A DNA stretch of 39,723 nucleotides, taken from positions 1-39,723 of IMG/VR virus record IMGVR_UViG_3300038335_000064; one strand, 5' to 3'. The DNA comes from a virus. Below are positions 4,846-38,949 of this stretch, piece by piece. A program made the position numbers and the translations under genes. Numbering within the stretch: position 1 is the first letter of the stretch; the number at the start of each line of letters is the position of its first letter. A model generated the notes under the pieces. It was not told the DNA's origin. It saw only the letters and a list, made by a program, of their open reading frames with translations, and did not search any database.

Positions 4846-5033
4846 CGCTGCTGCGCTGCCGCCTCCAACAGCACCAGCGCGGTCCGCTCGGCCTCTTCCA
4901 GGCTCAAAAAAAACCGCGCAGCTGCCTCTGGCGAGCCATCGCCTACCGTCAGCGCAAGGCCGACATGGGTCAGCAGATCGGGTGGCCGGCCGACGCTGCG
5001 CAGGGAAGCTGGGATGTAGGCAGGGTTTGGCAT
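4764..5033 (-). CDS. Hypothetical protein
   Basis: ATG 5033-5031 abuts the stop of 5034..5315. Its 3' end overlaps 4621..4845 convergently by 82 nt. Confidence 0.4.
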   Translation of the reverse strand: MPNPAYIPASLRSVGRPPDLLTHVGLALTVGDGSPEAAARFFLSLEEAERTALVLLEAAAQQRYTAFIQSSKSSGMPSPDVSPDEGQLQ

Positions 5034-5315
5034 TCAGGCGGCCTCGCGCTCGCTGTCGCACACAGGGAAACCGGCCGCAACGAGTGCGGCGGCAATGTCT
5101 TGCTGGGTGACCGCCATCGCCTGCAGCGTCTGCAAGCGCGCAGCCGGGATGCCGCCGCGCGTGCGCCATCCGATCACCGAGGGCGAGCGGATTTTGAAGC
5201 GGCGCGCGACGGCGGTGGGGCCACCGAGGGCGGTGATCAGAACGGCGGTTTTCGTGTCCATGGGCGACGCCACGCGCATCAGTCGGCCGTTGCGGACGCA
5301 GTAGTGAGGTTTCAT
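5034..5315 (-). CDS. Cro-like HTH DNA-binding protein (second of a tandem pair)
   Basis: LITALGGPTAVARRFKIRSPSVIGWRTRGGIPAARL is HTH-like. The start choice among three Met codons is unresolved. Confidence 0.6.
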   Translation of the reverse strand: MKPHYCVRNGRLMRVASPMDTKTAVLITALGGPTAVARRFKIRSPSVIGWRTRGGIPAARLQTLQAMAVTQQDIAAALVAAGFPVCDSEREAA

Positions 5316-5318
5316 GGC

Positions 5319-5594
5319 TCATGCCGCCTTCTCGGTGGGCGTGGGGTCTGCGCGGGTGTAGCCGGCGGCTTCTATCGCTGCAACGAGGTCGGGGCGCAGC
5401 TCGGCAATCGAGACCGCGCCGTCCGTGGCGGATTGAATGCGCTGCGCAAGTTGCGGGGACGCGCGCTTGTGCCCGAGCGCAATCATGTACAGCGTCCGGA
5501 AGCTGCATCCGGCGCGATCTGCCACGCGGGCGAGCACTGGGCAATTGATTTTGCCGGTTCCACCCTCGGCGCGCGTGTAGGCTGAGATATTCAT
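5319..5594 (-). CDS. Cro/YdaS-family HTH regulator
   Basis: MNISAYTRAEGG...LYMIALGHKRASPQLAQRIQSATDGAVSIAELRPDL matches the YdaS/Cro pattern. It diverges from the cI-like gene across a 70-bp operator region. Confidence 0.7.
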   Translation of the reverse strand: MNISAYTRAEGGTGKINCPVLARVADRAGCSFRTLYMIALGHKRASPQLAQRIQSATDGAVSIAELRPDLVAAIEAAGYTRADPTPTEKAA

Positions 5595-5601
5595 GCCCAA
5601 G

Positions 5602-5630
5602 ACATTACCGTATCGGTTACGCGGTTGCAA
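5602..5630 (-). promoter_or_regulatory. Candidate leftward early promoter (cro)
   Basis: On the minus strand: TTGCAA (5630-5625), a 17-nt spacer, then TAATGT (5607-5602). The predicted start is about 5595, which makes cro leaderless or nearly so. Confidence 0.45.
5605..5619. promoter_or_regulatory. Operator-like 15-mer TTACC-N5-GGTTA
   Basis: Imperfect palindrome that overlaps the -10 and spacer of the cro promoter. Confidence 0.45.
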
Positions 5631-5645
5631 TACCCTTTCGGTCAT

Positions 5646-5660
5646 TTACCGCCGTGGTAA
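5646..5660. promoter_or_regulatory. Operator-like 15-mer TTACC-N5-GGTAA (perfect arms)
   Basis: Perfect 5-bp inverted arms, ending 4 nt before the cI-like ATG. Confidence 0.5.
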
Positions 5661-5664
5661 CGCC

Positions 5665-6180
5665 ATGCACTATGAGCACATGGATGCGAAGACTGCCAGG
5701 ACCATGAACATCCGCGCCTTGGTAACCCGAGAGGGTGGGCCAACCAAGTTTGCAGAAAAGTCAGGGGACTGGTCCCAGGCGCAAGTCAGCCAATGGATTT
5801 CTGAGACGAACCCAAAGGGCATCGGGCATGCGCTAGCCCGCGCCATAGAGCGCACGTTCGGCCTGGCCCAAGGCTGGATGGATCAGCCGCACGGCACCGT
5901 CCATATCGGCGTCGCAACCACGGCCATCGAGACCGTGACGATCAGCCCGCTGTCGCACCGCCCCGACCCGGTGTTGCTGAGCCGGGCGGTCAGCGAGGCG
6001 ATGGATGCCTTTCGGCGCAAACGCCTGCTGCCCACCGACGCGGCGCTAGCCAGGGCCATCGTGCTGGCCTATCAAAGCCTGGCGGCTGGCGTTGCGCTCG
6101 CTGCTAGCCGCCGCGCACTCGATGAGGCCCTGCAGAAAGTCCTTACCGAAGAACTGGCCGATCACCCCAAGCAGGAATAG
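5665..6180 (+). CDS. cI-like HTH repressor without an S24 peptidase domain
   Basis: NIRALVTREGGPTKFAEKSGDWSQAQVSQWISETNPKGIGHALARAIERTFGLAQGWMDQP is a lambda-repressor-type HTH. The C-terminus is helical with no Ser/Lys protease motifs. No SD precedes ATG 5665. Confidence 0.7.
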   Translation: MHYEHMDAKTARTMNIRALVTREGGPTKFAEKSGDWSQAQVSQWISETNPKGIGHALARAIERTFGLAQGWMDQPHGTVHIGVATTAIETVTISPLSHRPDPVLLSRAVSEAMDAFRRKRLLPTDAALARAIVLAYQSLAAGVALAASRRALDEALQKVLTEELADHPKQE

Positions 6181-6183
6181 CGC

Positions 6184-6387
6184 ATGCGAGACGATGACAT
6201 CAATGCCGCCGTTGTTGAGGCCCGCCGGCAACTAGACGAAGCCCTGGCGGCGGCCGTGCCGGCCGCAACACCGGCTGCGGGCAACGTGCATATCTGCGGC
6301 AGCACCGTAGTCAACGCCGGTATCGTGCATATCGGCTCGCAGACGATCCACCAAACGGCGCCGCCGACAAAGGCAAAGACACCGTGA
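6184..6387 (+). CDS. Small hypothetical protein with repeated VHI(G/C) motifs
   Basis: Starts 3 nt after the cI-like stop. Contains GNVHICGSTVVNAGIVHIGSQTIHQ. Confidence 0.5.
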   Translation: MRDDDINAAVVEARRQLDEALAAAVPAATPAAGNVHICGSTVVNAGIVHIGSQTIHQTAPPTKAKTP

Positions 6388-6890
6388 TGGCTGAGCGTGC
6401 CGGCAACATCGCGCAGCACCTGTACATACGCGACCAGACGATCCACATCGGCGGTGCGCCCGAGTGGATTCAAACCTTGCCGCTGGCCGATCTGCAAACT
6501 GCACGTGATCGCCTGCACAGCGCGGCGCGGCGCCACGAAGCGCTGGCGTTGACCGTGCTGCTGGTGCCATTTCTTGCCGCAGTGCTGGTAATCGGCGTGC
6601 TCAGCTTGAGCTTGCTTGGCGCCCCGGAAGCCGATCGCCATCAAGCAGGCCCGGCGCTGCTGTGGATGGGTGGGCTGATCGCGGTCGCTATATTGTTCGC
6701 GCTCTACGACGTGCGCCGCCGGCACCGTCGCGTAGTGGCCGCCGCCGAGCGCCGCTGGGCCGAGCTGGTGGTGGAGATCGCCGCGCGCGAAGACCCACCG
6801 AAGCGCGAAGCGCCGTTCAAGCGGTTGGCGCGATGGTGGCGTGCGCGCCGCAGCTCCCCCGTGGCTCACGGAGGCCGTGATGTCGCCTGA
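6387..6890 (+). CDS. Two-TM membrane protein with an N-terminal QTIHIGG motif
   Basis: The ATG overlaps the upstream TGA by 1 nt. Hydrophobic segments: ALALTVLLVPFLAAVLVIGVLSLSLLG and ALLWMGGLIAVAILFALY. Confidence 0.6.
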   Translation: MAERAGNIAQHLYIRDQTIHIGGAPEWIQTLPLADLQTARDRLHSAARRHEALALTVLLVPFLAAVLVIGVLSLSLLGAPEADRHQAGPALLWMGGLIAVAILFALYDVRRRHRRVVAAAERRWAELVVEIAAREDPPKREAPFKRLARWWRARRSSPVAHGGRDVA

Positions 6891-7749
6891 GCCGCAGCCG
6901 CCAACAGCGGCAGAAGGATTTCTGATCATCGCCAGCCTGATCTTGTTCGCGGCGGTATGGGCGGTGATCGCGCAACGCGGTCGAATGGCCGGCCGGCATG
7001 CCGTATTGCGCCATCTCGCCGGACTGTTCGGCGGCAGCGCCGTGTGGTTTCTGGCGATGCTGCTTGGCATCGGCGTGCGCCTCCCAGGCACGGTTGCAAG
7101 CGTTTCGATGATCGCCGCGCTGCTGATGCTGCCGAAGCTGACAGCGATCAGCGCACAGGTTGGCAATATCCGTGCGGAGTGGCTGCGATTCAAGGCAGAA
7201 ACAAAAGACGCATGGCGCCAGGCCGACGCTCAAACCGCGCAAGAGGCGCGTGCTCGGCGCGAAGCGGAGGAAAGCCGCCTGCGCGAGGAGCGCGAAGAGC
7301 GCGAAAGGCAACGACTCATCGCGCTCGAAACCTTACCCGAGCGCCTGCGTCTCCAGCGAGAACGGGCCGCAGCGTCTGTGCGCGAACTCTGCGCAAGGCG
7401 GGATCTGGAAAAATCCGCGCGCCTCGAAACACCCAATCATGACGACGGTATCCGCTTGCTGCGCTCTCCCATGCACGATGTGTCGCATCGCGGAGATGGC
7501 GGTTGGGATGGTTCAACTGCTGCAGTAGGACCTGAGCGCGTGACATTTACCTACGAAGACGCTTTCGGCAACGTGACCGACCGAGAAGTAGTAGTGCATC
7601 GCGCGGACAGGCAATGCTTTGCTGGATACTGCATGGAGCGCCAAGCCGAGCGCACATTCCGCTACGACCGCATCGTCGGCGAAGTCGTGCGTACCGACAC
7701 CGGCGAGGCGCTGAGCGCCAAGGCGTGGATGCGCGAATTGACCCGCTGA
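6880..7749 (+). CDS. Three-TM membrane protein with a coiled coil and a C-terminal WYL-like domain
   Basis: GGAGG lies 5 nt before ATG 6880, and the gene overlaps its upstream neighbour by 11 nt. There are three N-terminal hydrophobic helices and an ARARREAEESRLREEREERERQR coiled coil. The C-terminus VTFTYEDAFGNVTDREVVVHRADRQCFAGYCMERQAERTFRYDRIV fits the WYL pattern. Confidence 0.65.
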   Translation: MSPEPQPPTAAEGFLIIASLILFAAVWAVIAQRGRMAGRHAVLRHLAGLFGGSAVWFLAMLLGIGVRLPGTVASVSMIAALLMLPKLTAISAQVGNIRAEWLRFKAETKDAWRQADAQTAQEARARREAEESRLREEREERERQRLIALETLPERLRLQRERAAASVRELCARRDLEKSARLETPNHDDGIRLLRSPMHDVSHRGDGGWDGSTAAVGPERVTFTYEDAFGNVTDREVVVHRADRQCFAGYCMERQAERTFRYDRIVGEVVRTDTGEALSAKAWMRELTR

Positions 7750-7828
7750 GAATGCAGCGAACATCACGCCGCCGCCATTCCAGCCACACCCGGTAACCCA
7801 ACGCCTGCGCCACGCGGGGTGTAGCCGA

Positions 7829-8158
7829 TCACCGCGCCGCCTGCCCAAGAGTGTCGGCCGCCCACTGATTGAGGCTTTTGCCGGCGAGCTCGGCGGCGCG
7901 GATCGCGACGGCGTGCAAATCCGGCGACACCCTCAGCAGTATCTTGCCGCTCGCCGGCCGCTCTGGGCGCTGCCCCAGCTTGCTGCATGCCTCGGTGTAA
8001 TCGTCCACCGCAGCATGGAACGCCTGCTCCAGTTCGTCCACCGTGGACCCGTGGAATCCCACAACATCGCGGATGCCGGCAACGTGGCCGACGAAGATGC
8101 GATCTTCCGGATCGTACTCGATGCGGGCCGCGTAGCGCTTGTAGATCATGGTGTTCAT
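7829..8158 (-). CDS. hicB: HicB-family antitoxin
   Basis: MNTMIYKRYAARIEYDPEDRIFVGHVAGIRDVVGFHGSTVDELEQAFHAAVDDY... followed by a C-terminal RHH-like tail. ATGA overlap with hicA. Confidence 0.85.
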   Translation of the reverse strand: MNTMIYKRYAARIEYDPEDRIFVGHVAGIRDVVGFHGSTVDELEQAFHAAVDDYTEACSKLGQRPERPASGKILLRVSPDLHAVAIRAAELAGKSLNQWAADTLGQAAR

Positions 8159-8409
8159 GGCGTTACTCCAATGCATTGCAAGAACGAGCGCGCATCCTTG
8201 ACGCGGTAACGCAGCGCTTCCTTACGCGGGTGCGGGCGATGGAAAAACACCTTCTCCCCATCCTTCTCGAACGTGACCGACGACCCGCTGCCATCAACTC
8301 GCCGGCAGCCGATGGCCAGCAGCAGCGCCTCGATTCTGGACCACTCCAATGCCCCGTTCACCGGTTCGGCAAAGATGGCGGCCAACGTCTTGCGGTGCGC
8401 GCTGTTCAT
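8155..8409 (-). CDS. hicA: HicA-family mRNA interferase toxin
   Basis: 84 aa, MNSAHRKTLAAIFAEPVNGALEWSRIEALLLAIGCRRVDGSGSSVTFEKDGEKVFFHRPHP. Confidence 0.85.
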   Translation of the reverse strand: MNSAHRKTLAAIFAEPVNGALEWSRIEALLLAIGCRRVDGSGSSVTFEKDGEKVFFHRPHPRKEALRYRVKDARSFLQCIGVTP

Positions 8410-8416
8410 GCGGCAC

Positions 8417-8444
8417 ATGATATCACATTGTGCTATCAATGCAA
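8417..8444 (-). promoter_or_regulatory. Candidate hicAB promoter
   Basis: On the minus strand: TTGCAT (8444-8439), 16 nt, TATCAT (8422-8417). The ATG is 7 nt downstream, so the mRNA may be leaderless. The 8-bp palindrome TGATATCA (8418-8425) overlaps the -10. Confidence 0.4.
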
Positions 8445-8542
8445 CACGCCCCGAATCCATCCCACCGGCCAGCGCCGGAGCCGCACTGCGCTGAGCATGC
8501 CCGCTATCGCAACAACCGGCACCTGCATCATGCAAAACGTCA

Positions 8543-10196: not shown

Positions 10197-11011
10197 TGGA
10201 TGCCAACGCGATCAACACCATCGCCGATCTCGCCGTTGCCGCCAACAATGGCGCGCACCTTGGCACGCCCACGCCGGCCCTGTTCCACGCCGGCAAGCTC
10301 ACCAGCATCGAGCACCTGCAGGCTGGCCGAGCGCGCTTTCGCGGGCGCATGACGACCTCATCGCTCGCCGACTTCGCGGGATACATCGCTGCCCGCGCAG
10401 CGGCCGCGCTGAAACCTGCGTGTTTCATCGACGCAAACGCCACGTCCGCGAAGTGCTATTTCAACCTTGGCACCGACGAGCTGCCCGGCCACGCCGATGA
10501 CATCGCCGAACTCACGCTCACCCCTACCGCAGCCTTCGCAGCCATTTGCGCCTTGGATGGCCACCGGCTTGCACAACGTGCGCTGGCCGAGTTCGTCGAA
10601 GAATGGTCGCAACACATTTCGGCCACCACGTCCGACGGTGAGGCACTCCCGCTCAGCGCCGCTGTCGTCGCGATCCGCAACATCCAGATCAAGCAACGCT
10701 CGGAATCCACGTCGACGGTGGGGAACTTCAACACCAGCCGCTCGGCACTTGATGAGATCGAGGCAAGAGCCAACGGCACCATCGAACTGCCCGGCGCACT
10801 CTACTTCCGCGTGACGCCATACGCCGGACTCACTGAGCAGATTGCCGAACTGCGCCTGTCGATCATCACCAGCGAGGAAAAGCCCGTTTTTGCCGTGCGT
10901 TGGAACCGCCGCGAGCAGATGCGCGAAGACATCGCGCAGGATTTCAAACGCGTGGTCACGTCCGCCATCGGCGGCACTGCCAGCGTGATCGTCGGCACTT
11001 TCACCCCGTAA
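10196..11011 (+). CDS. DUF2303 / YfdQ-family protein
   Basis: 271 aa. Size and sequence character are typical of prophage YfdQ-like proteins. Assigned from memory. Confidence 0.65.
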   Translation: MDANAINTIADLAVAANNGAHLGTPTPALFHAGKLTSIEHLQAGRARFRGRMTTSSLADFAGYIAARAAAALKPACFIDANATSAKCYFNLGTDELPGHADDIAELTLTPTAAFAAICALDGHRLAQRALAEFVEEWSQHISATTSDGEALPLSAAVVAIRNIQIKQRSESTSTVGNFNTSRSALDEIEARANGTIELPGALYFRVTPYAGLTEQIAELRLSIITSEEKPVFAVRWNRREQMREDIAQDFKRVVTSAIGGTASVIVGTFTP

Positions 11012-11057
11012 CCGGCACGCCCGCCGCCGGGCGATCCGGCGGCGGGCAGGAGACCAC

Positions 11058-11378
11058 ATGCGCATCTACCTCAGCGGCCCCATGAGCGGCCTTCCAGACC
11101 TCAACTTCCCCGCGTTCAATGCCGCCGCTGCCAAACTGCGCAGCCTGGGCTACACCGTGGTCAACCCCGCCGAACTCAACCCGGACAACACCACAGCCTG
11201 GGATGCGTGCATGCGCGCCGACATCAAAGCCCTGTGCGATTGCACCACACTGGCGCTGCTGCCGGGCTGGGAACGCAGCCAGGGCGCGCACCTGGAAATG
11301 CACATCGCACATCGTATCGGAATCGAGGTGTTGCAGATCGATGCGCTGGTGTGCCGTGGCGTTCCTCAAACCGCATGA
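11058..11378 (+). CDS. DUF4406 (nucleoside 2-deoxyribosyltransferase-like) protein
   Basis: MRIYLSGPMSGLPDLNFPAFNAAAAKLRSLGYTVVNPAEL...LPGWERSQGAHLEMHIA. Confidence 0.75.
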   Translation: MRIYLSGPMSGLPDLNFPAFNAAAAKLRSLGYTVVNPAELNPDNTTAWDACMRADIKALCDCTTLALLPGWERSQGAHLEMHIAHRIGIEVLQIDALVCRGVPQTA

Positions 11379-12037
11379 GTGTTCCGCGCCACATCTGGAC
11401 CGAAGCCGAAGTAGCCATGCTGCGCGCACGCTACCCGCACCAGCGCACCGCCGATATCGCGGCTGCCCTTGGCGTATCCAAAGCCAAGGTCTACTACAAA
11501 GCCGACGCGCTCGGCCTGCGCAAGAGCACCGCGTTCCTGGCCAGCCAGATGTCCGGGCGAACCGACGGAACGCGCGGCGAGAAAACACGATTCGCTTCAG
11601 GGAAACGCCCGTGGAACGCCGGCAAGAAAATCGGTACCCACGGCCGCAGCGCCGAAACGCAATTCAAGCCTGGGCAACTGACCGGCAAAGCCCGCATGTT
11701 GCTCAAGCAGATCGGTTCAGAGCGCATATCGAAGGATGGTTACCTCGAACGCAAGATCAATGATGACCAGCCGATCTACAAGCGCTGGCGCGCCGTACAC
11801 CGCATCGTCTGGGAGCGCGCCAACGGACCAATCCCGCGTGGCCACGCCATCGTGTTCCGGCCCGGCTGCCGCAGCATCAATGCCGCCGCCATCACCGTCG
11901 ACAAACTCGAACTGGTCACCCGGCGCGAACTGATGCGCCGCAACAGCATCCACAACTACCCCGAACCCATCGTCCAGGTAATGCAAGCGCGTGGCGCGCT
12001 GGTCAGGGCCATCAACCGCAGGAGCAAGGCCGCATGA
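11375..12037 (+). CDS. HNH endonuclease (HNH_3-type)
   Basis: ATGA overlap. Contains GYLERKI..RWRAVHRIVWERANGPIPRGHAIVFRPG. Confidence 0.7.
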   Translation: MSVPRHIWTEAEVAMLRARYPHQRTADIAAALGVSKAKVYYKADALGLRKSTAFLASQMSGRTDGTRGEKTRFASGKRPWNAGKKIGTHGRSAETQFKPGQLTGKARMLLKQIGSERISKDGYLERKINDDQPIYKRWRAVHRIVWERANGPIPRGHAIVFRPGCRSINAAAITVDKLELVTRRELMRRNSIHNYPEPIVQVMQARGALVRAINRRSKAA

Positions 12038-12336
12038 GCGACATCAACACCCTTCGCAGCGCGCTGTTCGAGACCCTCGCCGCGCTCAAGGACAAAGACA
12101 AGCCGATGGACCTGGATCGCGCCCGCGCGATCTGCGACGTATCGCAGACCATCATCAACTCGGCAAAGGTGGAGGTCGATTTTGTCAAGGCCACCGGTTG
12201 CAACGTCGATAGCGGTTTCATCAATGCGCTGCCGCGCAAGCAAAAGCCGGGCTACAACCTGGTCGAGCCTGCTCAATCGCAGCCGAGCAACGGCCAAAAG
12301 GCACTGCCCGGCAAGCCGTTGACCGGAGTGATCTGA
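12034..12336 (+). CDS. Hypothetical protein
   Basis: ATGA overlap. 100 aa. Confidence 0.55.
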   Translation: MSDINTLRSALFETLAALKDKDKPMDLDRARAICDVSQTIINSAKVEVDFVKATGCNVDSGFINALPRKQKPGYNLVEPAQSQPSNGQKALPGKPLTGVI

Positions 12337-12727: not shown

Positions 12728-12955
12728 ATGACAGACACTTGGCTTATCCCCGCCGAAGTCGAAGAGCTCACCGCCAGACAGCGGTGGTCCGCGCAATGCC
12801 GGGCGCTGGCAGCAATGGGTATTCCGTTTCGGCCCAACGCCGTCGGCCGCCCGCTGGTTGAGCGTGCAGTGATACTCTCGCAGGCTGGCAAGCCAAAGCC
12901 AAAGCGCGAACCGAACTGGGGGGCCATCAAGCATGGGCCGGCCAAGACTGCATGA
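12728..12955 (+). CDS. DUF4224-domain protein (integrase-associated, possible excision factor)
   Basis: LIPAEVEELTARQRWSAQCRALAAMGIPFRPNAVGRPLV. Lies immediately upstream of int and overlaps it. Confidence 0.7.
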   Translation: MTDTWLIPAEVEELTARQRWSAQCRALAAMGIPFRPNAVGRPLVERAVILSQAGKPKPKREPNWGAIKHGPAKTA

Positions 12956-13901
12956 CAAGCACCTGCCGCGCGGTATGTTGCACCGGCACGGCGCCTACTA
13001 CTTCGTCGCTGCCGGCAAATGGCACCGGCTCGCCAGTGAGTACGGCCCGGCGCTAATCCGCTACGCCGAGCTTGTGGGCAACACGCCAACCGTGACCACG
13101 GTCGCCGATGCGGTATCACATTACCTTGAATCGAGCGCGGCACGACTACGGCCCGCCACCCTCGAAGGCTACCGCAACGGCGCCCGTAGGCTGGCCGCAG
13201 TGTTCGGCCGCATGGCTCTCAGCGACCTCACCGCCGCGCACGTCTACCGCTACCTGGTCGAGCACGGCACCGTGCAGGCGAACCGCGATCGCGCGTTGCT
13301 GAGCGCTGCGTACAGCCACGCACGCCGCATCGGCGCGTTCAGCGGCGACGACCCCACCAAGCGCCTGCAATTCCGCAACCCGGAAGTCCCGCGCCAACGC
13401 TACGTCACCGATGCCGAGTTCGCAGCACTGATCGCCGCCGCACCGCCGCGCCTCGCCGTCATCCTACGCTTCGTGTACACCACCGGCATGCGCATTGGCG
13501 ACGCGCTCGCGATGCCGATGGATGCGATCACCGACGACGGCATCGCCTACCAACAACGCAAGACCGGCGCGCGCCTGCTGATCGAGATAACGCCAGACCT
13601 GCGCGCCCTACTCGATGAAATCGCCCGCACATTTCGCCGCTTCGGCCGCCGCTATTTGTTCGAATCGCGCCCAACCCGCGCCGGGCCGGCCGGGCCGTAC
13701 ACCGTCAGCGGACTGCGCAGCAACTTTCGGCGGGCGCTGGCCAAGGCTGGGCTTGCGCACATGACCTTGCATGACCTGCGGCGCAAGGCCGGCAGCGACA
13801 TCGAGGGCGAGCACGCAACACGGTTGCTCGGCCACCGCGACGCCAAGGTCACGCAACGCCATTATCGCGCCAAGCCAGAGCGCGTAAAACCGGTCCTGTA
13901 G
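12933..13901 (+). CDS. int: Tyrosine recombinase / phage integrase
   Basis: Lambda-Int-like N-terminus MGRPRLHDKHLPRGM..GAYYF. C-terminal catalytic motifs HDLRRKAGS and LLGHRDAKVTQRHY. Confidence 0.9.
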   Translation: MGRPRLHDKHLPRGMLHRHGAYYFVAAGKWHRLASEYGPALIRYAELVGNTPTVTTVADAVSHYLESSAARLRPATLEGYRNGARRLAAVFGRMALSDLTAAHVYRYLVEHGTVQANRDRALLSAAYSHARRIGAFSGDDPTKRLQFRNPEVPRQRYVTDAEFAALIAAAPPRLAVILRFVYTTGMRIGDALAMPMDAITDDGIAYQQRKTGARLLIEITPDLRALLDEIARTFRRFGRRYLFESRPTRAGPAGPYTVSGLRSNFRRALAKAGLAHMTLHDLRRKAGSDIEGEHATRLLGHRDAKVTQRHYRAKPERVKPVL

Positions 13902-15463: not shown

Positions 15464-16017
15464 GCGATCAGCACCCCGTACCAACGCCGAATTCGTTGAA
15501 CGTAGGCGATCGTTTCGTCAGCGTGTTTGCCAGTGATCTGCGGCAGGCAAGCGCTGATGTCTGACCATGCCCGGGCGCCGCCGCATGCGCGCTGGGCGCT
15601 CAGGATATTCCCCGCTCCGGCGTTGTAGCTCGCCTGCGCCAGTGCGCGCCGATCCGACTCCGGCCGCTCAGCGCTCCATGTGCGCCGCATGCGCTGCATG
15701 TAGCGACCGCTAGCGAGAATGGCCGGACCCACCGCGTGCGGACTCACTCCACCGAAGCCAAGGCCAGGCGCAACCTCCGCCCACGTCGCCGGCATGAACT
15801 GCGCGATCCCGCGCGCACCGGCAGGGCTCACCGCACCCGGATCGAGCCTTGACTCTTGGTAGAGCTGGGCTTTGAGCCAGCGCCAATCCCAGCCGGGTAG
15901 ATACAGGCGCGAGGCATCGCGGATCGCGCCATCGTACCGATCCGTTCCCAGAACGCCGGCGCGCGCCGGTGGCGGCACGATCGACAGCAGCAGGGCGACC
16001 AGCAGTACACAACGCAT
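15460..16017 (-). CDS. Lytic transglycosylase (SLT-domain) endolysin with an N-terminal signal or SAR-like segment
   Basis: MRCVLLVALLLSIVPPPARA..., then YQESRLDPGAVSPAGARGIAQFMP and the YNAG motif. Confidence 0.85.
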   Translation of the reverse strand: MRCVLLVALLLSIVPPPARAGVLGTDRYDGAIRDASRLYLPGWDWRWLKAQLYQESRLDPGAVSPAGARGIAQFMPATWAEVAPGLGFGGVSPHAVGPAILASGRYMQRMRRTWSAERPESDRRALAQASYNAGAGNILSAQRACGGARAWSDISACLPQITGKHADETIAYVQRIRRWYGVLIA

Positions 16018-16253
16018 CACGAATACACCTGACCCAGCAAAATGCACAGGCCGATCACGCATCCGGCCAGCAGGGTGGCACACGCCTGCGGGTTGGCCAG
16101 CACGCCATCGACAGCACGCCGCAGCTCTTGACGGCTCACGCCCCAACGCGACAGTCCGAACGAAACAGTCCACGCCAGGCTCGCAACTGCGAGCGGGACG
16201 ACGACAGCGGTTGCGGCAATGGAAATGCCGACGGTTTGCAGTAGTTCGTTCAC
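16017..16253 (-). CDS. Holin-like membrane protein
   Basis: 78 aa with 2-3 hydrophobic helices, immediately upstream of the endolysin with overlapping junctions. Confidence 0.55.
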   Translation of the reverse strand: MNELLQTVGISIAATAVVVPLAVASLAWTVSFGLSRWGVSRQELRRAVDGVLANPQACATLLAGCVIGLCILLGQVYS

Positions 16254-16663
16254 TGTGATTTTCTCCTGCGTCGCACGTCGGGATGCACCGGATCGGCGTG
16301 AGCGAGCAGGCGCTCCAGCCCGGCGTTGATTGGATCGATTCGGTCGGACAGCATCTGCCGCAGTTCGTCTTTTGTTGGGTACTCGCGAAAGGCCTTCGTG
16401 AACTCGATCCGCACCTCGGAAACGTGTTCCCGCGCCATCCGCGCCTCGGCCTTGGCATGCTCGATGTCGCTCGCAACCACCCGCGCGTGCGCGGCAATCG
16501 CACGGCTGCGCGCGTCGCGTTCCCCAGCGATAGCCGTGGCGAGTGCTATGTCATGTCGCGATAACTGCCGGCTCAGCCACCAACCAAGCGCGGCGGTTTG
16601 CATCAGCAGTGCTGCGGCAGCAGCGAGCAGTGCGATCCAGTTCTGCGCGAGCTGGCTGTCCAT
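16250..16663 (-). CDS. Membrane-anchored coiled-coil protein
   Basis: N-terminal TM segment WIALLAAAAALLMQTAALGWWL, with a helical remainder. Confidence 0.5.
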   Translation of the reverse strand: MDSQLAQNWIALLAAAAALLMQTAALGWWLSRQLSRHDIALATAIAGERDARSRAIAAHARVVASDIEHAKAEARMAREHVSEVRIEFTKAFREYPTKDELRQMLSDRIDPINAGLERLLAHADPVHPDVRRRRKSQ

Positions 16664-16836
16664 CACCCAGCCTTCGCGGACCGCGCCACACGGATGCGCC
16701 ATGCCGCGCGCCCGGCCAGGCCTACAGCAGCGGCGACGCTGACCCACCAGGGAAACAGCAGCACCAGCACGATAATGGCGGCGGCAAGCAGCTGCTCGAT
16801 GGGCGAAAAGTTGGCGGCTTTGATGGCGTCGAACAT
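16663..16836 (-). CDS. Small membrane protein
   Basis: 57 aa, LLAAAIIVLVLLFPWWVSVAAAVGLAG. Tightly packed with its neighbours. Confidence 0.45.
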   Translation of the reverse strand: MFDAIKAANFSPIEQLLAAAIIVLVLLFPWWVSVAAAVGLAGRAAWRIRVARSAKAG

Positions 16837-16838
16837 GG

Positions 16839-16991
16839 TCAATCTCCGTAGTGAACCGGATCGCTGTCGCCTTGCGGCTTGCGCCGAAAGAACCAGCGCA
16901 GGAATGCAGCGGCAAGCACTACCCCGATCGGTATCGAAACCCACCGCGGCAATAGCGACAGAATCATGGCGATGGCGGCGAGCGAGTCCAT
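16839..16991 (-). CDS. Small membrane protein
   Basis: 50 aa, MDSLAAIAMILSLLPRWVSIPIGVVLAAAFLRWFF. Confidence 0.45.
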   Translation of the reverse strand: MDSLAAIAMILSLLPRWVSIPIGVVLAAAFLRWFFRRKPQGDSDPVHYGD

Positions 16992-17341
16992 TACTGCGGC
17001 ACGCCGAACTGCTCGTTGTAGAGGATGTCGAACGCCGCCTTCAGGATCACCATGACGCCCGCCGACGACACCGCCGACAGATCGGCGCCGGTGACCGGGT
17101 CGAGTGCGCCTGCCGGCGCGAACTGGCGCGTCAGAATCTGCTCGAATGCGGTGCTGAAACTTCCTGCGCCCTCGAATGATCTGCCGGGCAGCATCACGAC
17201 GCCTGCCGCGTCGCTGAGGTAGCGCCGGGTGTCGAACGTGATGCTGCCCGTGTCGGTTTCCGGATCCCAGTGGATGCTGGTCAACGGGGCGAGCACGACG
17301 GCCGACATGTCGGCGGGGAGTTGTTGGATGCGGGCGTTCAT
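16991..17341 (-). CDS. Hypothetical protein (tail-fibre-associated position)
   Basis: 116 aa with good coding character. Confidence 0.55.
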   Translation of the reverse strand: MNARIQQLPADMSAVVLAPLTSIHWDPETDTGSITFDTRRYLSDAAGVVMLPGRSFEGAGSFSTAFEQILTRQFAPAGALDPVTGADLSAVSSAGVMVILKAAFDILYNEQFGVPQ

Positions 17342-36762: not shown

Positions 36763-37364
36763 GGCGTCACATCCAGTGCGCCCAGCCGACGGCTAAGTTC
36801 GGCCAGTTGCAGTTCCACCGCCTCGGCAATCAGTGCCCGGCACCGCCCTTCATCGGCTTCGGCCGCCAGTTGCGGCCCAAGCGTATCGGCCAATGCCTCC
36901 AGGCCGGCGCGCGCGATCGCAAACGCCCCAGCGCACACCGCCACCACATCGGCGGTGCGCAGCAACTTGCCTTCGTTCTCGGCATGTTCGCGCTCGGCGC
37001 TCAGCGCGGCAGCGCGCTCGCGGCGCTCGCGCCAATACTGGTAGCCGAGCGTGGGTGCTTCGGGTTCGCTACCGCCGTCAACCGCCGCAGCGGCGCTATC
37101 GGGCGGCGGCAGCGCGTTCTGCGGTTGGCCCGGCGCTGCTCCCCTCCTCGCCTCCCGTTGCGCGGCGTGGCGTTCGGCGACGGCGCGCTTGCCGGGGTCG
37201 CGAGTGGCTTCGATGCGCGCGATCGACTCGGCCACCTGCACTGCCCCATCATCTGCCAGCACCAGCCGGCCATCGCGCTTGAGCGCGGTGACGTAGCTGC
37301 GCCGGTAGCCGAGCAGGCGGGCGAACTCGGCTTGCGTGCAGGTTTGCGGTAACCCGTCGGTCAT
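36759..37364 (-). CDS. Terminase small subunit (Nu1-like N-terminal HTH)
   Basis: TQAEFARLLGYRRSYVTALKRDGRLV. Position and overlaps with terL and the upstream gene fit. Confidence 0.7.
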   Translation of the reverse strand: MTDGLPQTCTQAEFARLLGYRRSYVTALKRDGRLVLADDGAVQVAESIARIEATRDPGKRAVAERHAAQREARRGAAPGQPQNALPPPDSAAAAVDGGSEPEAPTLGYQYWRERRERAAALSAEREHAENEGKLLRTADVVAVCAGAFAIARAGLEALADTLGPQLAAEADEGRCRALIAEAVELQLAELSRRLGALDVTP

Positions 37365-38290
37365 CCGTTGGCCTCGCGGTAGGTTTGCACGGCCGCATGA
37401 AACACGCTGATCTGCTCACCCAGCCAGTCGGTTTCGGTGCGATCGACGGGCGGGATGATGTCGCCCAGGTACAGCACGCCATGTGGCCCGAGCACTTGCG
37501 AGCCGGCCTGGTAGCGCTTGCGGGCACTGGCCACGCCGTAGCGGCGCTGCAGGGCGTTGATGAAGTGCTGCTGCGCGGCGATGCGGGCGCCGTTGGCGCT
37601 GCACCAGCGCTGATAGAGGTCGTAAACGCTGGTGCTTAGCGCCGGGCGCGCGCTGACGCCGGGGATGTCGCCGGCGGTGAGCGCGGTGTAGAACCAGGCA
37701 ATGGAGTCATCGTAGGCCAGCGCTGCGTCCGCGCCAGCCGGGTCGGCCGCAACCTCGACGCCCAGCTCATCGGTCCAGTCCACGCCGGTGTGGCGCTGCG
37801 CGCAGGCAAAGGCAGCGCGCATGGCGCGGGCCGGGGCCATGCGGGTTTTCTGCGCGGTGCGCAAGGCGGCGGCGAAGATGCGCCCGGCGCTAACCAGCAC
37901 ATCGGCGCGGTGGTTCGGCGGCGCGGGGATGGGTTGCGGCGTGGAGGCGGCGCCGGTGACCAGGGCATCGTAGGCGCGGATGACGTGCAGGTGGAACTTG
38001 GCGCTGATCCACATGGCGTAGGCGTAGACCAGTTCTTTGACGGCGTAGGTGCCGTTTCCGAATCCGTCGTTCACCGTGGACAGGGGGGCCTCCTCAGATG
38101 TGAGGAGGCCCCCCGCACTTTTCTCGGTGTTTTCGATCTCCGCGATCAGTTCGGCGGTCTGATCGAGTCGCAACCAGTTCGCCGGCTGGTGCCGCTTGGC
38201 ACCGCCACTGGCTTGGTGCAAGTCATTGAGGCAGTAGCGCCCGGTCGGATCGCGGCGAATCTGGGTATTGGCGATGATCAGGGCATTCAC
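37361..38290 (-). CDS. KilA-N domain protein fused to a paralogue of the primase C-terminal domain
   Basis: GGAGG lies 6 nt before GTG 38290. KilA-N signature: IRRDPTGRYCLNDLHQASGG..ANWLR...GTYAVKELVYAYAMWISAKFHLHVI. The last approximately 113 aa are about 65 percent identical to the primase tail (39301-39640). Confidence 0.8.
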   Translation of the reverse strand: MNALIIANTQIRRDPTGRYCLNDLHQASGGAKRHQPANWLRLDQTAELIAEIENTEKSAGGLLTSEEAPLSTVNDGFGNGTYAVKELVYAYAMWISAKFHLHVIRAYDALVTGAASTPQPIPAPPNHRADVLVSAGRIFAAALRTAQKTRMAPARAMRAAFACAQRHTGVDWTDELGVEVAADPAGADAALAYDDSIAWFYTALTAGDIPGVSARPALSTSVYDLYQRWCSANGARIAAQQHFINALQRRYGVASARKRYQAGSQVLGPHGVLYLGDIIPPVDRTETDWLGEQISVFHAAVQTYREANG

Positions 38291-38949
38291 AGGGCACCTC
38301 CACGGGTTTCTTCGGCAATGATTTCGGCGCAGCGGGCGAGCAGAAAGCCCACCATGTCGTCCACCTCGGCGGGGCTGATCCCGTCGCGCAGCAGGCAATC
38401 GCGGAAATCGCGTTCGGCCAGTGCGAGGCCGTGATCTAACGGGTCGCGCTCGGCCGCGGCCGGCAGCACGCGGCGGGAGCGCTGGGATGGGAAGGCAATG
38501 ACGTTGCTGGGCCGCGCGTTGGCGGCAAGGGTGCGGGTGCTCATGGCGATGGTCTCCAACTGGTCTGTGGAGTCCGCCACCGCGACGCCAATCGCGGAGA
38601 CGGACGACGCGGGGTTGGCGTACCGGCAGTTGGCACCGGCGAGCCTTGCGGCTCCCCCGCGCCGCCCGCCATAGACCGGCGAGTGACGCAACGCAGGGCC
38701 CAGTGCCGATGCACCGGGCGTGAAAAAAGCGCCGGCATCGGACGATGGGCGCTTGCGCGCCAACGTGCTCGGGACGCCAATCCCGGCTGCCCGATTGAGG
38801 GCAGCGGGGCCAGCGTACACCCGTGCCGCAGGGCGAGGCAAGCACCGCAGTACCGCGTTAGTCTCGCCGTCGGCGGACAGTCTGCTGCCGGCCCAGCGCT
38901 GAAACGCCGGGCTGCGCATTGCGGCAAGCGTGGCCTGTGTGTTGCTCAT
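38287..38949 (-). CDS. Hypothetical protein (alternative start ATG 38544 gives an 85-aa product)
   Basis: AGGAGG lies 4 nt before ATG 38949 and GC3 is about 78 percent. The middle is low complexity and contains a terminator-like hairpin. GTGA junction with the KilA-N gene. Confidence 0.35.
   Translation of the reverse strand: MSNTQATLAAMRSPAFQRWAGSRLSADGETNAVLRCLPRPAARVYAGPAALNRAAGIGVPSTLARKRPSSDAGAFFTPGASALGPALRHSPVYGGRRGGAARLAGANCRYANPASSVSAIGVAVADSTDQLETIAMSTRTLAANARPSNVIAFPSQRSRRVLPAAAERDPLDHGLALAERDFRDCLLRDGISPAEVDDMVGFLLARCAEIIAEETRGGAL
38723..38752 (-). terminator. Candidate intrinsic terminator inside ORF 38287..38949
   Basis: On the minus strand: GCGCC-CATCG-(loop)-CGATG-cc-GGCGC followed by TTTTTT. 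Confidence 0.4.

Follow-up and report, generated by a model that had tools for sequence, protein, structure and literature searches.

What do the three small genes that follow the repressor gene of a temperate phage do, and do they form a single system? The question is raised by virus record IMGVR_UViG_3300038335_000064, of which the window analysed here is the whole metagenomic contig (39,723 nt), with the repressor gene followed on the same strand by the genes g1, g2 and g3. A first-pass annotation of this DNA had described g1 to g3 as a three-gene cassette in a rexAB-like position, possibly a defence module, and had overlooked both a motif shared by g1 and g2 and the link of this motif to the repressor. 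The comparisons presented here separate g1 and g2, which accompany the repressor in every locus read, from g3, which does not. Tentatively, and at somewhat less than even confidence, the sequences point to g1 and g2 coupling the repressor to a membrane output, with g3 as separate cargo behind them.

The upstream gene was assigned as a CI-type repressor because its product matched PHROG 12107 ('transcriptional repressor', E 2e-20), because its tblastn matches were annotated CI-like repressors of Pseudomonas phages and because Cro-like and CII-like genes lie divergent to it, in an operon with the primase gene. The protein has an N-terminal helix-turn-helix (HTH) domain and a C-terminal helical domain; no S24 peptidase domain was found in it with Pfam. 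The three open reading frames (ORFs) behind it are real genes on the repressor strand, spaced as first described. Gene g1 starts 3 nt past the repressor stop codon at 6180, g1 and g2 overlap by 1 nt (g2 ATG at 6387; alternative start GTG at 6384), and g2 and g3 overlap by 11 nt (g3 ATG at 6880; end of g2 at 6890). A Shine-Dalgarno sequence (GGAGG) precedes g3 and none precedes g2, which fits translational coupling of the latter, and the overlaps imply co-transcription of g1 to g3 with the repressor. Independent gene callers had predicted identical genes in six public copies of the contig. The ratios of non-synonymous to synonymous substitution (dN/dS) against diverged relatives were low (0.15 for the repressor, 0.28-0.69 for g1, 0.25-0.34 for g2 and 0.28 for g3), indicating that all four are genes under purifying selection.

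Conservation of gene order was read in 11 distinct loci encoding g2 homologues, the window included (other loci are denoted by L numbers). The order repressor, g1, g2 was found in all 11, each having a small ORF of the g1 layout (56-73 aa) between the other two genes. The repressor HTH domain is swapped among these loci whilst g1, g2 and the C-terminal domain of the repressor are retained, the last in 10 of the 11 even where the HTH has been exchanged; L010 is the diverged exception. Gene g3 occurred in only two loci (i.e. the window and L001). Its slot is occupied elsewhere by TcmP and DUF5131 genes (L016, L020 and L021) or by genes for a SLATT-like and a Zn-ribbon protein (L013), and in the remaining loci g2 is followed by opposite-strand genes, toxin-antitoxin pairs or nothing on that strand. 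As the g3 slot varies, the repressor C-terminal domain, g1 and g2 constitute the conserved unit and g3 is cargo. The trio that had been put forward as a cassette is thus not syntenic as a unit.

The two conserved small genes are joined by sequence as well as by position. The g1 product was confirmed as a 67-aa protein and has no hydrophobic segment, in keeping with the soluble protein first described; its acidic helix spans residues 1-25 (isoelectric point 4.2), and no Pfam, PHROG, NCBIfam or PADLOC family includes it. A single Q/N/G/V/I-rich, beta-strand-prone motif is present in two copies, one on the last ~25 residues of g1 and one on the first ~22 of g2. The g1 tail abounds in G, N, V, I, H, Q and T, and its coding sequence contains direct repeats of 21 nt (6277-6297 and 6316-6336). 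Smith-Waterman z-scores for g1 against g2, relative to shuffled sequences, were 4.3 in L010, 6.1 in L016 and 9.7 in L021. A hidden Markov model of the g2 motif retrieved the g1 C-termini of L021 (E 1.7e-5), L016 (8.7e-5) and L023 (7.7e-4), and cognate g1/g2 pairs outscored non-cognate ones (permutation p 0.01, partly driven by L017). Residues Q/N/G/V/I make up 55-58% of the g1 and g2 motifs as compared to a background of 23%, and K/P/L make up 6-9% across all motif sets as compared to 20%. Such an enrichment and depletion, respectively, have been reported for bacterial amyloid signalling motifs (10.1101/2020.01.06.895854). The g1/g2 motif did not match the amyloid-motif families of Pfam.

In the window, the same pattern reaches the repressor itself. 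A repeat of 19 nt links the inter-domain linker of the repressor (GTVHIG) with two sites in g1 (GNVHIC and GIVHIG), and an exact 12-nt repeat (encoding QTIH) is common to g1 and g2. Sought in all six reading frames of the window, the xVHIGx pattern occurred four times, always within the repressor, g1 (twice) or g2. This linker pattern was seen only in the type of repressor found in the window, L001 and L008.

A more direct link to the repressor was found in sister and cultured phages. The P2-like contig L017 has no g1; instead, the C-terminus of its repressor ('FTGDNHGNVAGKQ') matches the N-terminus of its g2 homologue ('FGGDNHGNVAGNQ') with z-scores of 11-12. A motif common to a repressor tail and the N-terminus of a membrane protein was also present in phages phiE202, phi52237, KS5, RSA1, RsoM1USA, vB_FUB5a and vB_CB1 and the BcepMu-like phiE255, which are P2-like or BcepMu-like phages of Burkholderia and Ralstonia. 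For example, 'SVGQA' is present in both phiE255 proteins and 'QxFxGxxIGQ' in those of KS5, and the P2-like motifs contain 48-53% Q/N/G/V/I. Cognate pairs of repressor and membrane protein scored 39.9 as compared to 29.2 for non-cognate pairs (permutation p 1.4e-4, some pairs being non-independent). The downstream 'membrane protein' family of these Burkholderia and Ralstonia phages has members in 79 phage records and corresponds to no Pfam family. Since a sister lineage carries the motif directly on the repressor tail, g1 can be viewed as a bridge between repressor and g2.

From these paired motifs we infer a physical pairing with amyloid-like behaviour. In the proposed mechanism, the acidic helix of g1 would bind the conserved C-terminal domain of the repressor, and the g1 tail would form a pair with the g2 N-terminus in the cytoplasm, or act as its template, as in the amyloid-signalling pairs Bab/Agp and Bell/NLR. 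The g2 protein, with its transmembrane (TM) hairpin and basic juxtamembrane helix, would be the membrane-acting output, such that the inner membrane would respond to the state of the repressor. The likeliest outcome would be killing or exclusion upon an attack on the repressor or the entry of a competitor, and an alternative outcome would be tuning of induction; a defence or exclusion role is plausible. The g3 protein would act independently, holding a cytoplasmic WYL domain on an inner-membrane tether and responding to a ligand near the membrane. A bolder and more doubtful proposal is that at least three phage lineages (i.e. the Stenotrophomonas-S1-like myovirus group, the Burkholderia/Ralstonia P2-like phages and the BcepMu-like phiE255) wire the repressor to a membrane protein through a prion-like motif. 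This motif would sit on the repressor tail or the g1 adaptor and on the N-terminus of the membrane protein, and a change in the repressor would produce an all-or-none membrane event, whether cell death, exclusion or induction.

Several observations weigh against a g1-g2 coupling device. The resemblance of g1 to g2 is modest in the window itself (z 2.8, p 0.017), and in L001, L008, L012 and L013 it was not significant against shuffled sequences. Chance can make short motifs of biased composition similar, the xVHIGx pattern was chosen post hoc, with the data already in view, and co-variation of cognate pairs could arise from gene conversion or block recombination instead of selection for pairing. 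Contact between g1 and the repressor is suggested only by one fusion lineage and by conserved adjacency. Searches of Pfam and NCBIfam revealed no Bell, 'Babybell' or HeLo pore-former and no NLR, TPR, GreA/B-C or PIN sensor in g1, g2 or the repressor, and any similarity of g2 to a pore-former or toxin was undetectable in fold and profile searches. Finally, the ligand and role proposed for g3 are drawn purely by analogy.

An accessory of the lysis-lysogeny switch, as opposed to a defence system, would account for some of the same data. Here g2, acting through g1, would sequester or release the repressor at the membrane and so set the level of spontaneous or stress induction, and g3 would sense damage-derived single-stranded DNA, giving a RecA-independent route of induction for a repressor that lacks a peptidase domain for self-cleavage. 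In keeping with this idea, g1 and g2 always accompany the repressor C-terminal domain, as typical cargo would not, the repressors of the P2-like and BcepMu-like phages bear the motif on their own chain, and the repressor of the window is without an S24 domain. The window also encodes a P1-like C4 antisense RNA beside a KilA-N/Bro-N antirepressor-like gene, which suggests induction by antirepression, and WYL regulators sense single-stranded DNA according to one report (PMC11662680). An antagonist of the repressor made from the repressor's own transcript would, however, be odd unless it were latent, and g3 cannot be essential to such a switch because it is missing from nine of the 11 loci. We regard a switch accessory as unlikely, though worth keeping in view.

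Alternatively, the locus might hold three unrelated proteins expressed in the lysogen (e.g. for superinfection exclusion) at a common insertion site, the g1/g2 similarity being functionally meaningless and due to biased composition, local duplication or gene conversion. Morons are classically located behind the repressor, and hicAB lies close by; exclusion is a frequent role of membrane proteins encoded beside repressors, and the motif similarity of the window's own g1 and g2 is weak. This explanation is harder to reconcile with the linkage of g1 and g2 to the repressor C-terminal domain in all loci except the diverged L010, with the strong motif matches in L016, L021 and L017 and with co-variation across two independent phage groups. 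Moreover, it is the cytoplasmic parts of g2 that are conserved and not the TM or periplasmic parts, which argues against a simple periplasm-facing entry blocker. Overall, a chance assembly of this kind appears improbable. RexAB-like abortive infection, in which a cytoplasmic sensor activates a depolarising membrane ion channel, is very improbable indeed: the genes share the position and strand of lambda rexA/rexB relative to cI and the order of a soluble and then a membrane protein, but there is no sequence match in PADLOC or Pfam and no fold match, g1 has 67 aa as against ~279 for RexA and g2 has two TM helices as against four for RexB, leaving membership of the RexAB family unsupported.

The junction between the repressor and g1 raises a further possibility. 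The two genes share a reading frame and are separated only by TAG and one codon (window 6178-6186), such that readthrough of the stop codon could possibly give a repressor with a motif tail like those of the P2-like repressors. The exact 3-nt gap was conserved in six of the 11 loci. In L016 and L021 the genes overlap by 4 nt out of frame, indicating that a readthrough fusion is not a conserved feature. The positions of all these elements, together with the pairs from cultured phages, are collected in Table 1.

Table 1. Elements of the repressor locus in the window, and repressor/membrane-protein pairs of cultured phages
Feature	Position	Strand	Description
CI-like repressor	5665..6180	+	171 aa; upstream ATG at 5593 also possible
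Repressor inter-domain linker	5893..5949	+	'GTVHIGVATTAIETVTISP'; beta-prone; xVHIGx core as in g1 and g2
g1	6184..6387	+	67 aa; acidic N-terminal helix, Pro/Ala linker, C-terminal motif
g1 C-terminal motif	6277..6357	+	'AGNVHICGSTVVNAGIVHIGSQTIHQT'; two pseudo-repeats; Q/N/G/V/I-rich
g2	6387..6890	+	167 aa; N-terminal motif, two TM helices, conserved basic cytoplasmic helix
g2 N-terminal motif	6396..6455	+	'RAGNIAQHLYIRDQTIHIGG'; family consensus AGNvAQTllIaNQTINlGG
g2 TM hairpin	6543..6707	+	TM1 6543-6617, 13-residue loop, TM2 6657-6707
g2 juxtamembrane helix	6705..6791	+	'YDVRRRHRRVVAAAERRWAELVVEIAARE'; most conserved segment of the g2 family
g3	6880..7749	+	289 aa; membrane-anchored WYL protein
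g3 three-TM anchor	6916..7161	+	AlphaFold helices 10-36, 41-65 and 69 onwards
g3 helical stalk	7162..7425	+	Arg/Glu-rich; ~88 residues
g3 WYL domain	7537..7746	+	beta-barrel and terminal helix
phiE202 gp21/gp22	L029 2020-3244		repressor/membrane-protein pair
KS5 gp11/gp12	L030		repressor/membrane-protein pair
RSA1 ORF35/ORF33	L031		repressor/membrane-protein pair
phi52237 gp23/gp24	L033		repressor/membrane-protein pair
phiE255 gp46/gp47	L035 977-2178		repressor/membrane-protein pair

A search of 5.8 billion clusters yielded a g2 family of 25 members. The AlphaFold model of g2 (mean predicted local distance difference test, pLDDT, of 83) contains a two-helix TM hairpin formed by helices 33-75 and 81-134, in agreement with the two TM segments initially predicted. 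Within the motif region of the monomer model, residues 1-14 were of low confidence (pLDDT 41) and residues 18-27 formed a hairpin. The hydrophobic segments and the charge distribution support a predicted topology with both termini in the cytoplasm. Conservation within the family is lowest in the TM sequences; in the juxtamembrane helix, the invariant or near-invariant columns are Y107, D108, R110-R114, R123, W124, A125, E126 and E130.

No relative of g2 with a described function emerged. The protein matched no Pfam family above threshold and no PHROG, NCBIfam or PADLOC family. Comparison with PDB and BFVD gave no fold or sequence match, only generic helical hairpins with E above 0.04, and the g2 profile found nothing among PDB sequences. 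A match to DUF6232 (PF19744) was rejected, as it scored 19.8 bits against a threshold of 27.4 and was seen, weakly, in only three of 10 members; LPG_synthase_TM, S_4TM, CARF_TM, BatA and holin models were likewise discarded as below threshold and inconsistent among members. Searches of phages with tblastn, using g2 and the distant relative P0027, found no match, profile scans of GTDB species genomes and IMG/VR produced no confirmed relative and a scan of JGI metagenomes returned only the L010 contig already known. Present knowledge of the family therefore comes from a few metagenome assemblies only.

The third gene was examined as a separate entity. AlphaFold modelled g3 with a mean pLDDT of 88 from an alignment of 35 sequences. 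Of the three TM helices, the last runs unbroken to residue 181 with pLDDT above 90; a disordered linker follows, then a beta-barrel (residues 219-279, pLDDT above 95) and a short helix (residues 280-288) that ends the protein. Three TM segments and an Arg/Glu-rich helix had been predicted from the sequence and are borne out; the modelled stalk may be a coiled coil, as proposed, or a single alpha-helix spacer. From the charge distribution, the N-terminus would face outwards and the loop RGRMAGRHAVLRH, the stalk and the WYL domain would be cytoplasmic.

Assignment of the C-terminus to the WYL fold, already suspected from its sequence, held up. The protein scored 23.0 bits against Pfam PF13280 (gathering threshold 21.8, E 8e-5, residues 214-265) and 26.7 bits against the generic WYL model of PADLOC, and it matched PHROG 6785 (unknown function) with an E of 7.9e-11; an NCBIfam scan gave nothing. 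The domain modelled as a WYL barrel, and its leading Foldseek matches were PafBC (6sj9), BrxR (7qfz) and PafBC (9fnd), with generic SH3 domains ranking lower (probability 1.0 for the WYL matches, with E of 5e-3 to 5e-2 and none below 1e-3). A profile of the g3 family matched PafBC in PDB with an E of 3e-4. Residues Y225, G230, R235, V237, C251, R258, T259, F260, T274, G275 and E276 are invariant in the family, and the WYL signature, including G249-Y250-C251, R258-T259-F260 and T274-G275-E276, is invariant or nearly so across the 35 members. The basic residues of this signature (R235 and R258) suit an anionic ligand. Binding of single-stranded DNA is described for CapW-type WYL domains (PMC11662680). 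By analogy, g3 probably senses, from its membrane anchor and independently of g1 and g2, a nucleic-acid ligand, single-stranded DNA being one candidate.

The 5.8 billion clusters contained a single non-identical homologue over the full length of g3 (P0002, 67-71% identity, same synteny), its stalk differing in length by 18 residues. The WYL subtype is far broader, comprising 461 representatives of 50%-identity clusters in an exhaustive profile search (E <= 1e-3). At least one N-terminal TM helix was detected, by a crude hydropathy scan, in 123 of 151 sequences (i.e. 149 top relatives, g3 and P0002). A membrane-tethered WYL protein had been called unusual, but ~80% of the sequences examined have a TM segment. 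Relatives bear a Pro/Ala-rich linker or a TerB-like domain at the place of the g3 stalk, the g3 TM domain recurs in the TerB-containing relatives P0029 and P0030, and some relatives add a C-terminal BRCT or a TerB-like middle domain. WYL-BRCT and WYL-TerB fusions were catalogued without function by Makarova et al. 2014 (PMC4012209).

Relatives adjacent to cI were found in cultured P2-like phages of Yersinia, Mannheimia and Burkholderia. The gene order in Yersinia phage vB_YenM_201.16 is cI, a 2TM-WYL gene (gp002) and int, the WYL-BRCT gene (ORF34) of Mannheimia phage PHL101 starts 4 nt after cI and the placement is similar in Yersinia phage MLG42 and the Burkholderia vB_FUB5a group. Given this distribution and the size of the family, membrane-tethered WYL proteins are a recurrent accessory of the lysogeny region. 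In L017, a 306-aa protein with TM helices, WYL and BRCT domains (6613-7533) is encoded between the repressor and the g2 homologue, a third arrangement of a WYL gene with a repressor and a motif-bearing membrane protein. Stand-alone 69-aa WYL domains of the same subtype are encoded by Stenotrophomonas phages Ptah (L018 4989-5198), StenM_174, BUCT609 and Stm18; these genes belong to lytic Autographiviridae and lie in the early region just upstream of the primase gene. WYL-BRCT proteins of 160-172 aa (L027, i.e. Escherichia phage 500465-1; PHL101 ORF34; NC_047750) are named 'DNA ligase' or 'putative exonuclease' in RefSeq, names that look like annotation errors because only WYL and BRCT domains are present.

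The other occupants of the cargo slot are diverse. TcmP (TIGR04474, E 3e-51) faces the DUF5131 gene in L016, L020 and L021. The L016 prophage lies within a contig of 639 kb and has, in addition, a diversity-generating retroelement (bAvd and reverse transcriptase) beside genes with Lcl_C domains; the L016 regions concerned are 10536-12145 and 15527-17274. In L013, g2 is followed by a gene for a 176-aa two-TM protein (6409-6939) with a weak, below-cutoff match to SLATT_1 (NCBIfam E 4e-3), accompanied by a Zn-ribbon membrane protein. The toxin-antitoxin site of related contigs holds hicAB, a second hicAB, HigBA-like or BrnTA pairs, which makes the stretch behind the repressor module a hotspot for cargo. 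In the window, a hicB antitoxin gene (7829-8158, minus strand) and a hicA toxin gene (8155-8409, minus strand) are convergent with g3 (Pfam HicB, E 1e-17; PHROG 9151, E 3e-39). They are followed by an ORF with an Lcl_C domain (PF07603; 8626-9033, plus strand), a conserved block of YfdP, DUF2303, DUF4406 and HNH genes and the integrase gene (12933-13901).

The wider gene content of the window (i.e. primase, CII-like activator, two Cro-like HTH proteins, integrase, terminase, portal, protease-capsid, sheath and tape measure) indicates a complete temperate myovirus genome of ~39.7 kb. Near-identical contigs of 39,698 and 39,053 bp are known, and the closest cultured relative is Stenotrophomonas phage S1 (63% identity, large terminase). 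A C4 antisense RNA (Rfam RF01695, 64 bits, E 2.6e-10) was detected at 38593-38676 on the minus strand, just upstream of the KilA-N/Bro-N antirepressor-like gene (ORF 37361-38290, minus strand; PHROG 129/2127). Together they look like a second immunity region of the P1/P7 immI type, the CI-like repressor of this phage being devoid of a domain for self-cleavage. Around the operon, consensus scans, which are uninformative for a genome of 65% GC, found no sigma-70 promoter and no convincing terminator, and the DNA of positions 5000-8500 matched none of 50,697 phage records. Long minus-strand ORFs at 6162-7193 and 6817-7311 were set aside as GC-rich artefacts, the homologues, dN/dS values and public gene calls all backing the plus-strand frames.

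If the pairing of motifs is real, the locus contains an unrecognised component of the lysogeny module, a physical link from repressor to membrane, and the g2 family, its 25 members having no known relatives, gains a first handle. Amyloid-type signalling would then extend from NLR-like immune receptors to phage repressors and, were the bolder proposal true, a phage immunity region would for the first time be seen to contain an amyloid-type switch. If it is not, the locus is an ordinary set of lysogeny-expressed membrane genes. Separately, the membrane-anchored WYL proteins, a large family encountered repeatedly next to phage repressors, provide candidate membrane sensors of nucleic acids.

Among known systems, lambda RexA and RexB match the locus in lying directly downstream of cI on the same strand and in being presumably expressed in the lysogen. 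They differ in having no homology to g1 or g2, other sizes and other numbers of TM helices; lambda RexA has ~279 aa and RexB four TM helices. RexA and RexB models gave no match (PADLOC at E <= 1; Pfam), and the defence module proposed in the first-pass annotation showed no similarity to RexA/RexB or to PADLOC systems beyond generic WYL models. No homologue with an established non-defence role was found.

The wHTH-WYL-WCX regulators (BrxR, CapW, PafBC and DriD), which sense single-stranded DNA, are the closest structural and sequence match to the g3 barrel, and g3 keeps their G-Y-C...R-T-F-R-x-D-R-I signature with its invariant arginines. Unlike them, g3 has no HTH (Pfam) and no WCX extension, with three TM helices and a helix of ~88 residues instead, and it cannot act as a DNA-bound transcription factor because these anchor it in the membrane. 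A further comparison is with the TM-WYL, TM-TerB-WYL and WYL-BRCT proteins (PHROG 6785; PHROG 2561 'DNA ligase', a label that reflects the BRCT domain alone). These share the WYL subtype of g3, mostly have N-terminal TM helices and are encoded beside cI or int in temperate phages; g3 differs in having an Arg/Glu stalk for the TerB domain or Pro-rich linker and no BRCT domain.

The Burkholderia and Ralstonia pairs resemble the repressor-g1-g2 unit in that a membrane protein gene lies downstream of a repressor gene and on its strand, the N-terminus of the membrane protein repeating a G/Q/N/V-rich motif of the repressor side, and in that a variable cargo slot, sometimes with a WYL-BRCT gene, comes next. 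In these phages, however, the motif is fused to the C-terminal tail of the repressor without a separate g1, and the membrane protein, unlike g2, combines a soluble alpha domain with a single TM helix and a periplasmic tail that contains Cys. The L017 lineage is the exception among P2-like pairs in encoding a true g2 homologue. The proteins of the Burkholderia and Ralstonia pairs are annotated merely as 'membrane protein' or 'hypothetical'.

The closest logic described elsewhere is that of Bab/Agp, through which an E. coli prophage brings about abortive infection; the motif lies at the C-terminus of a small helical protein and at the N-terminus of its neighbour (10.1101/2024.11.07.622273). Bab/Agp shares a prophage location with g1/g2. 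In Bab/Agp (BASS11) and in the Bell/NLR BASS pairs of filamentous bacteria, as here, the genes are adjacent and overlapping, the upstream product is small and helical and its C-terminal motif of ~25 residues is repeated on the N-terminus of the downstream product. The motif is likewise Q/N/G/V/I-rich and K/P/L-poor, with cognate motifs being more alike. The difference lies in the partners, since here it is a membrane protein that carries the N-terminal copy, and its partner is the 67-aa g1 or the repressor. In its sequence signature, the paired motif of this locus therefore matches amyloid-signalling pairs such as Bab/Agp.

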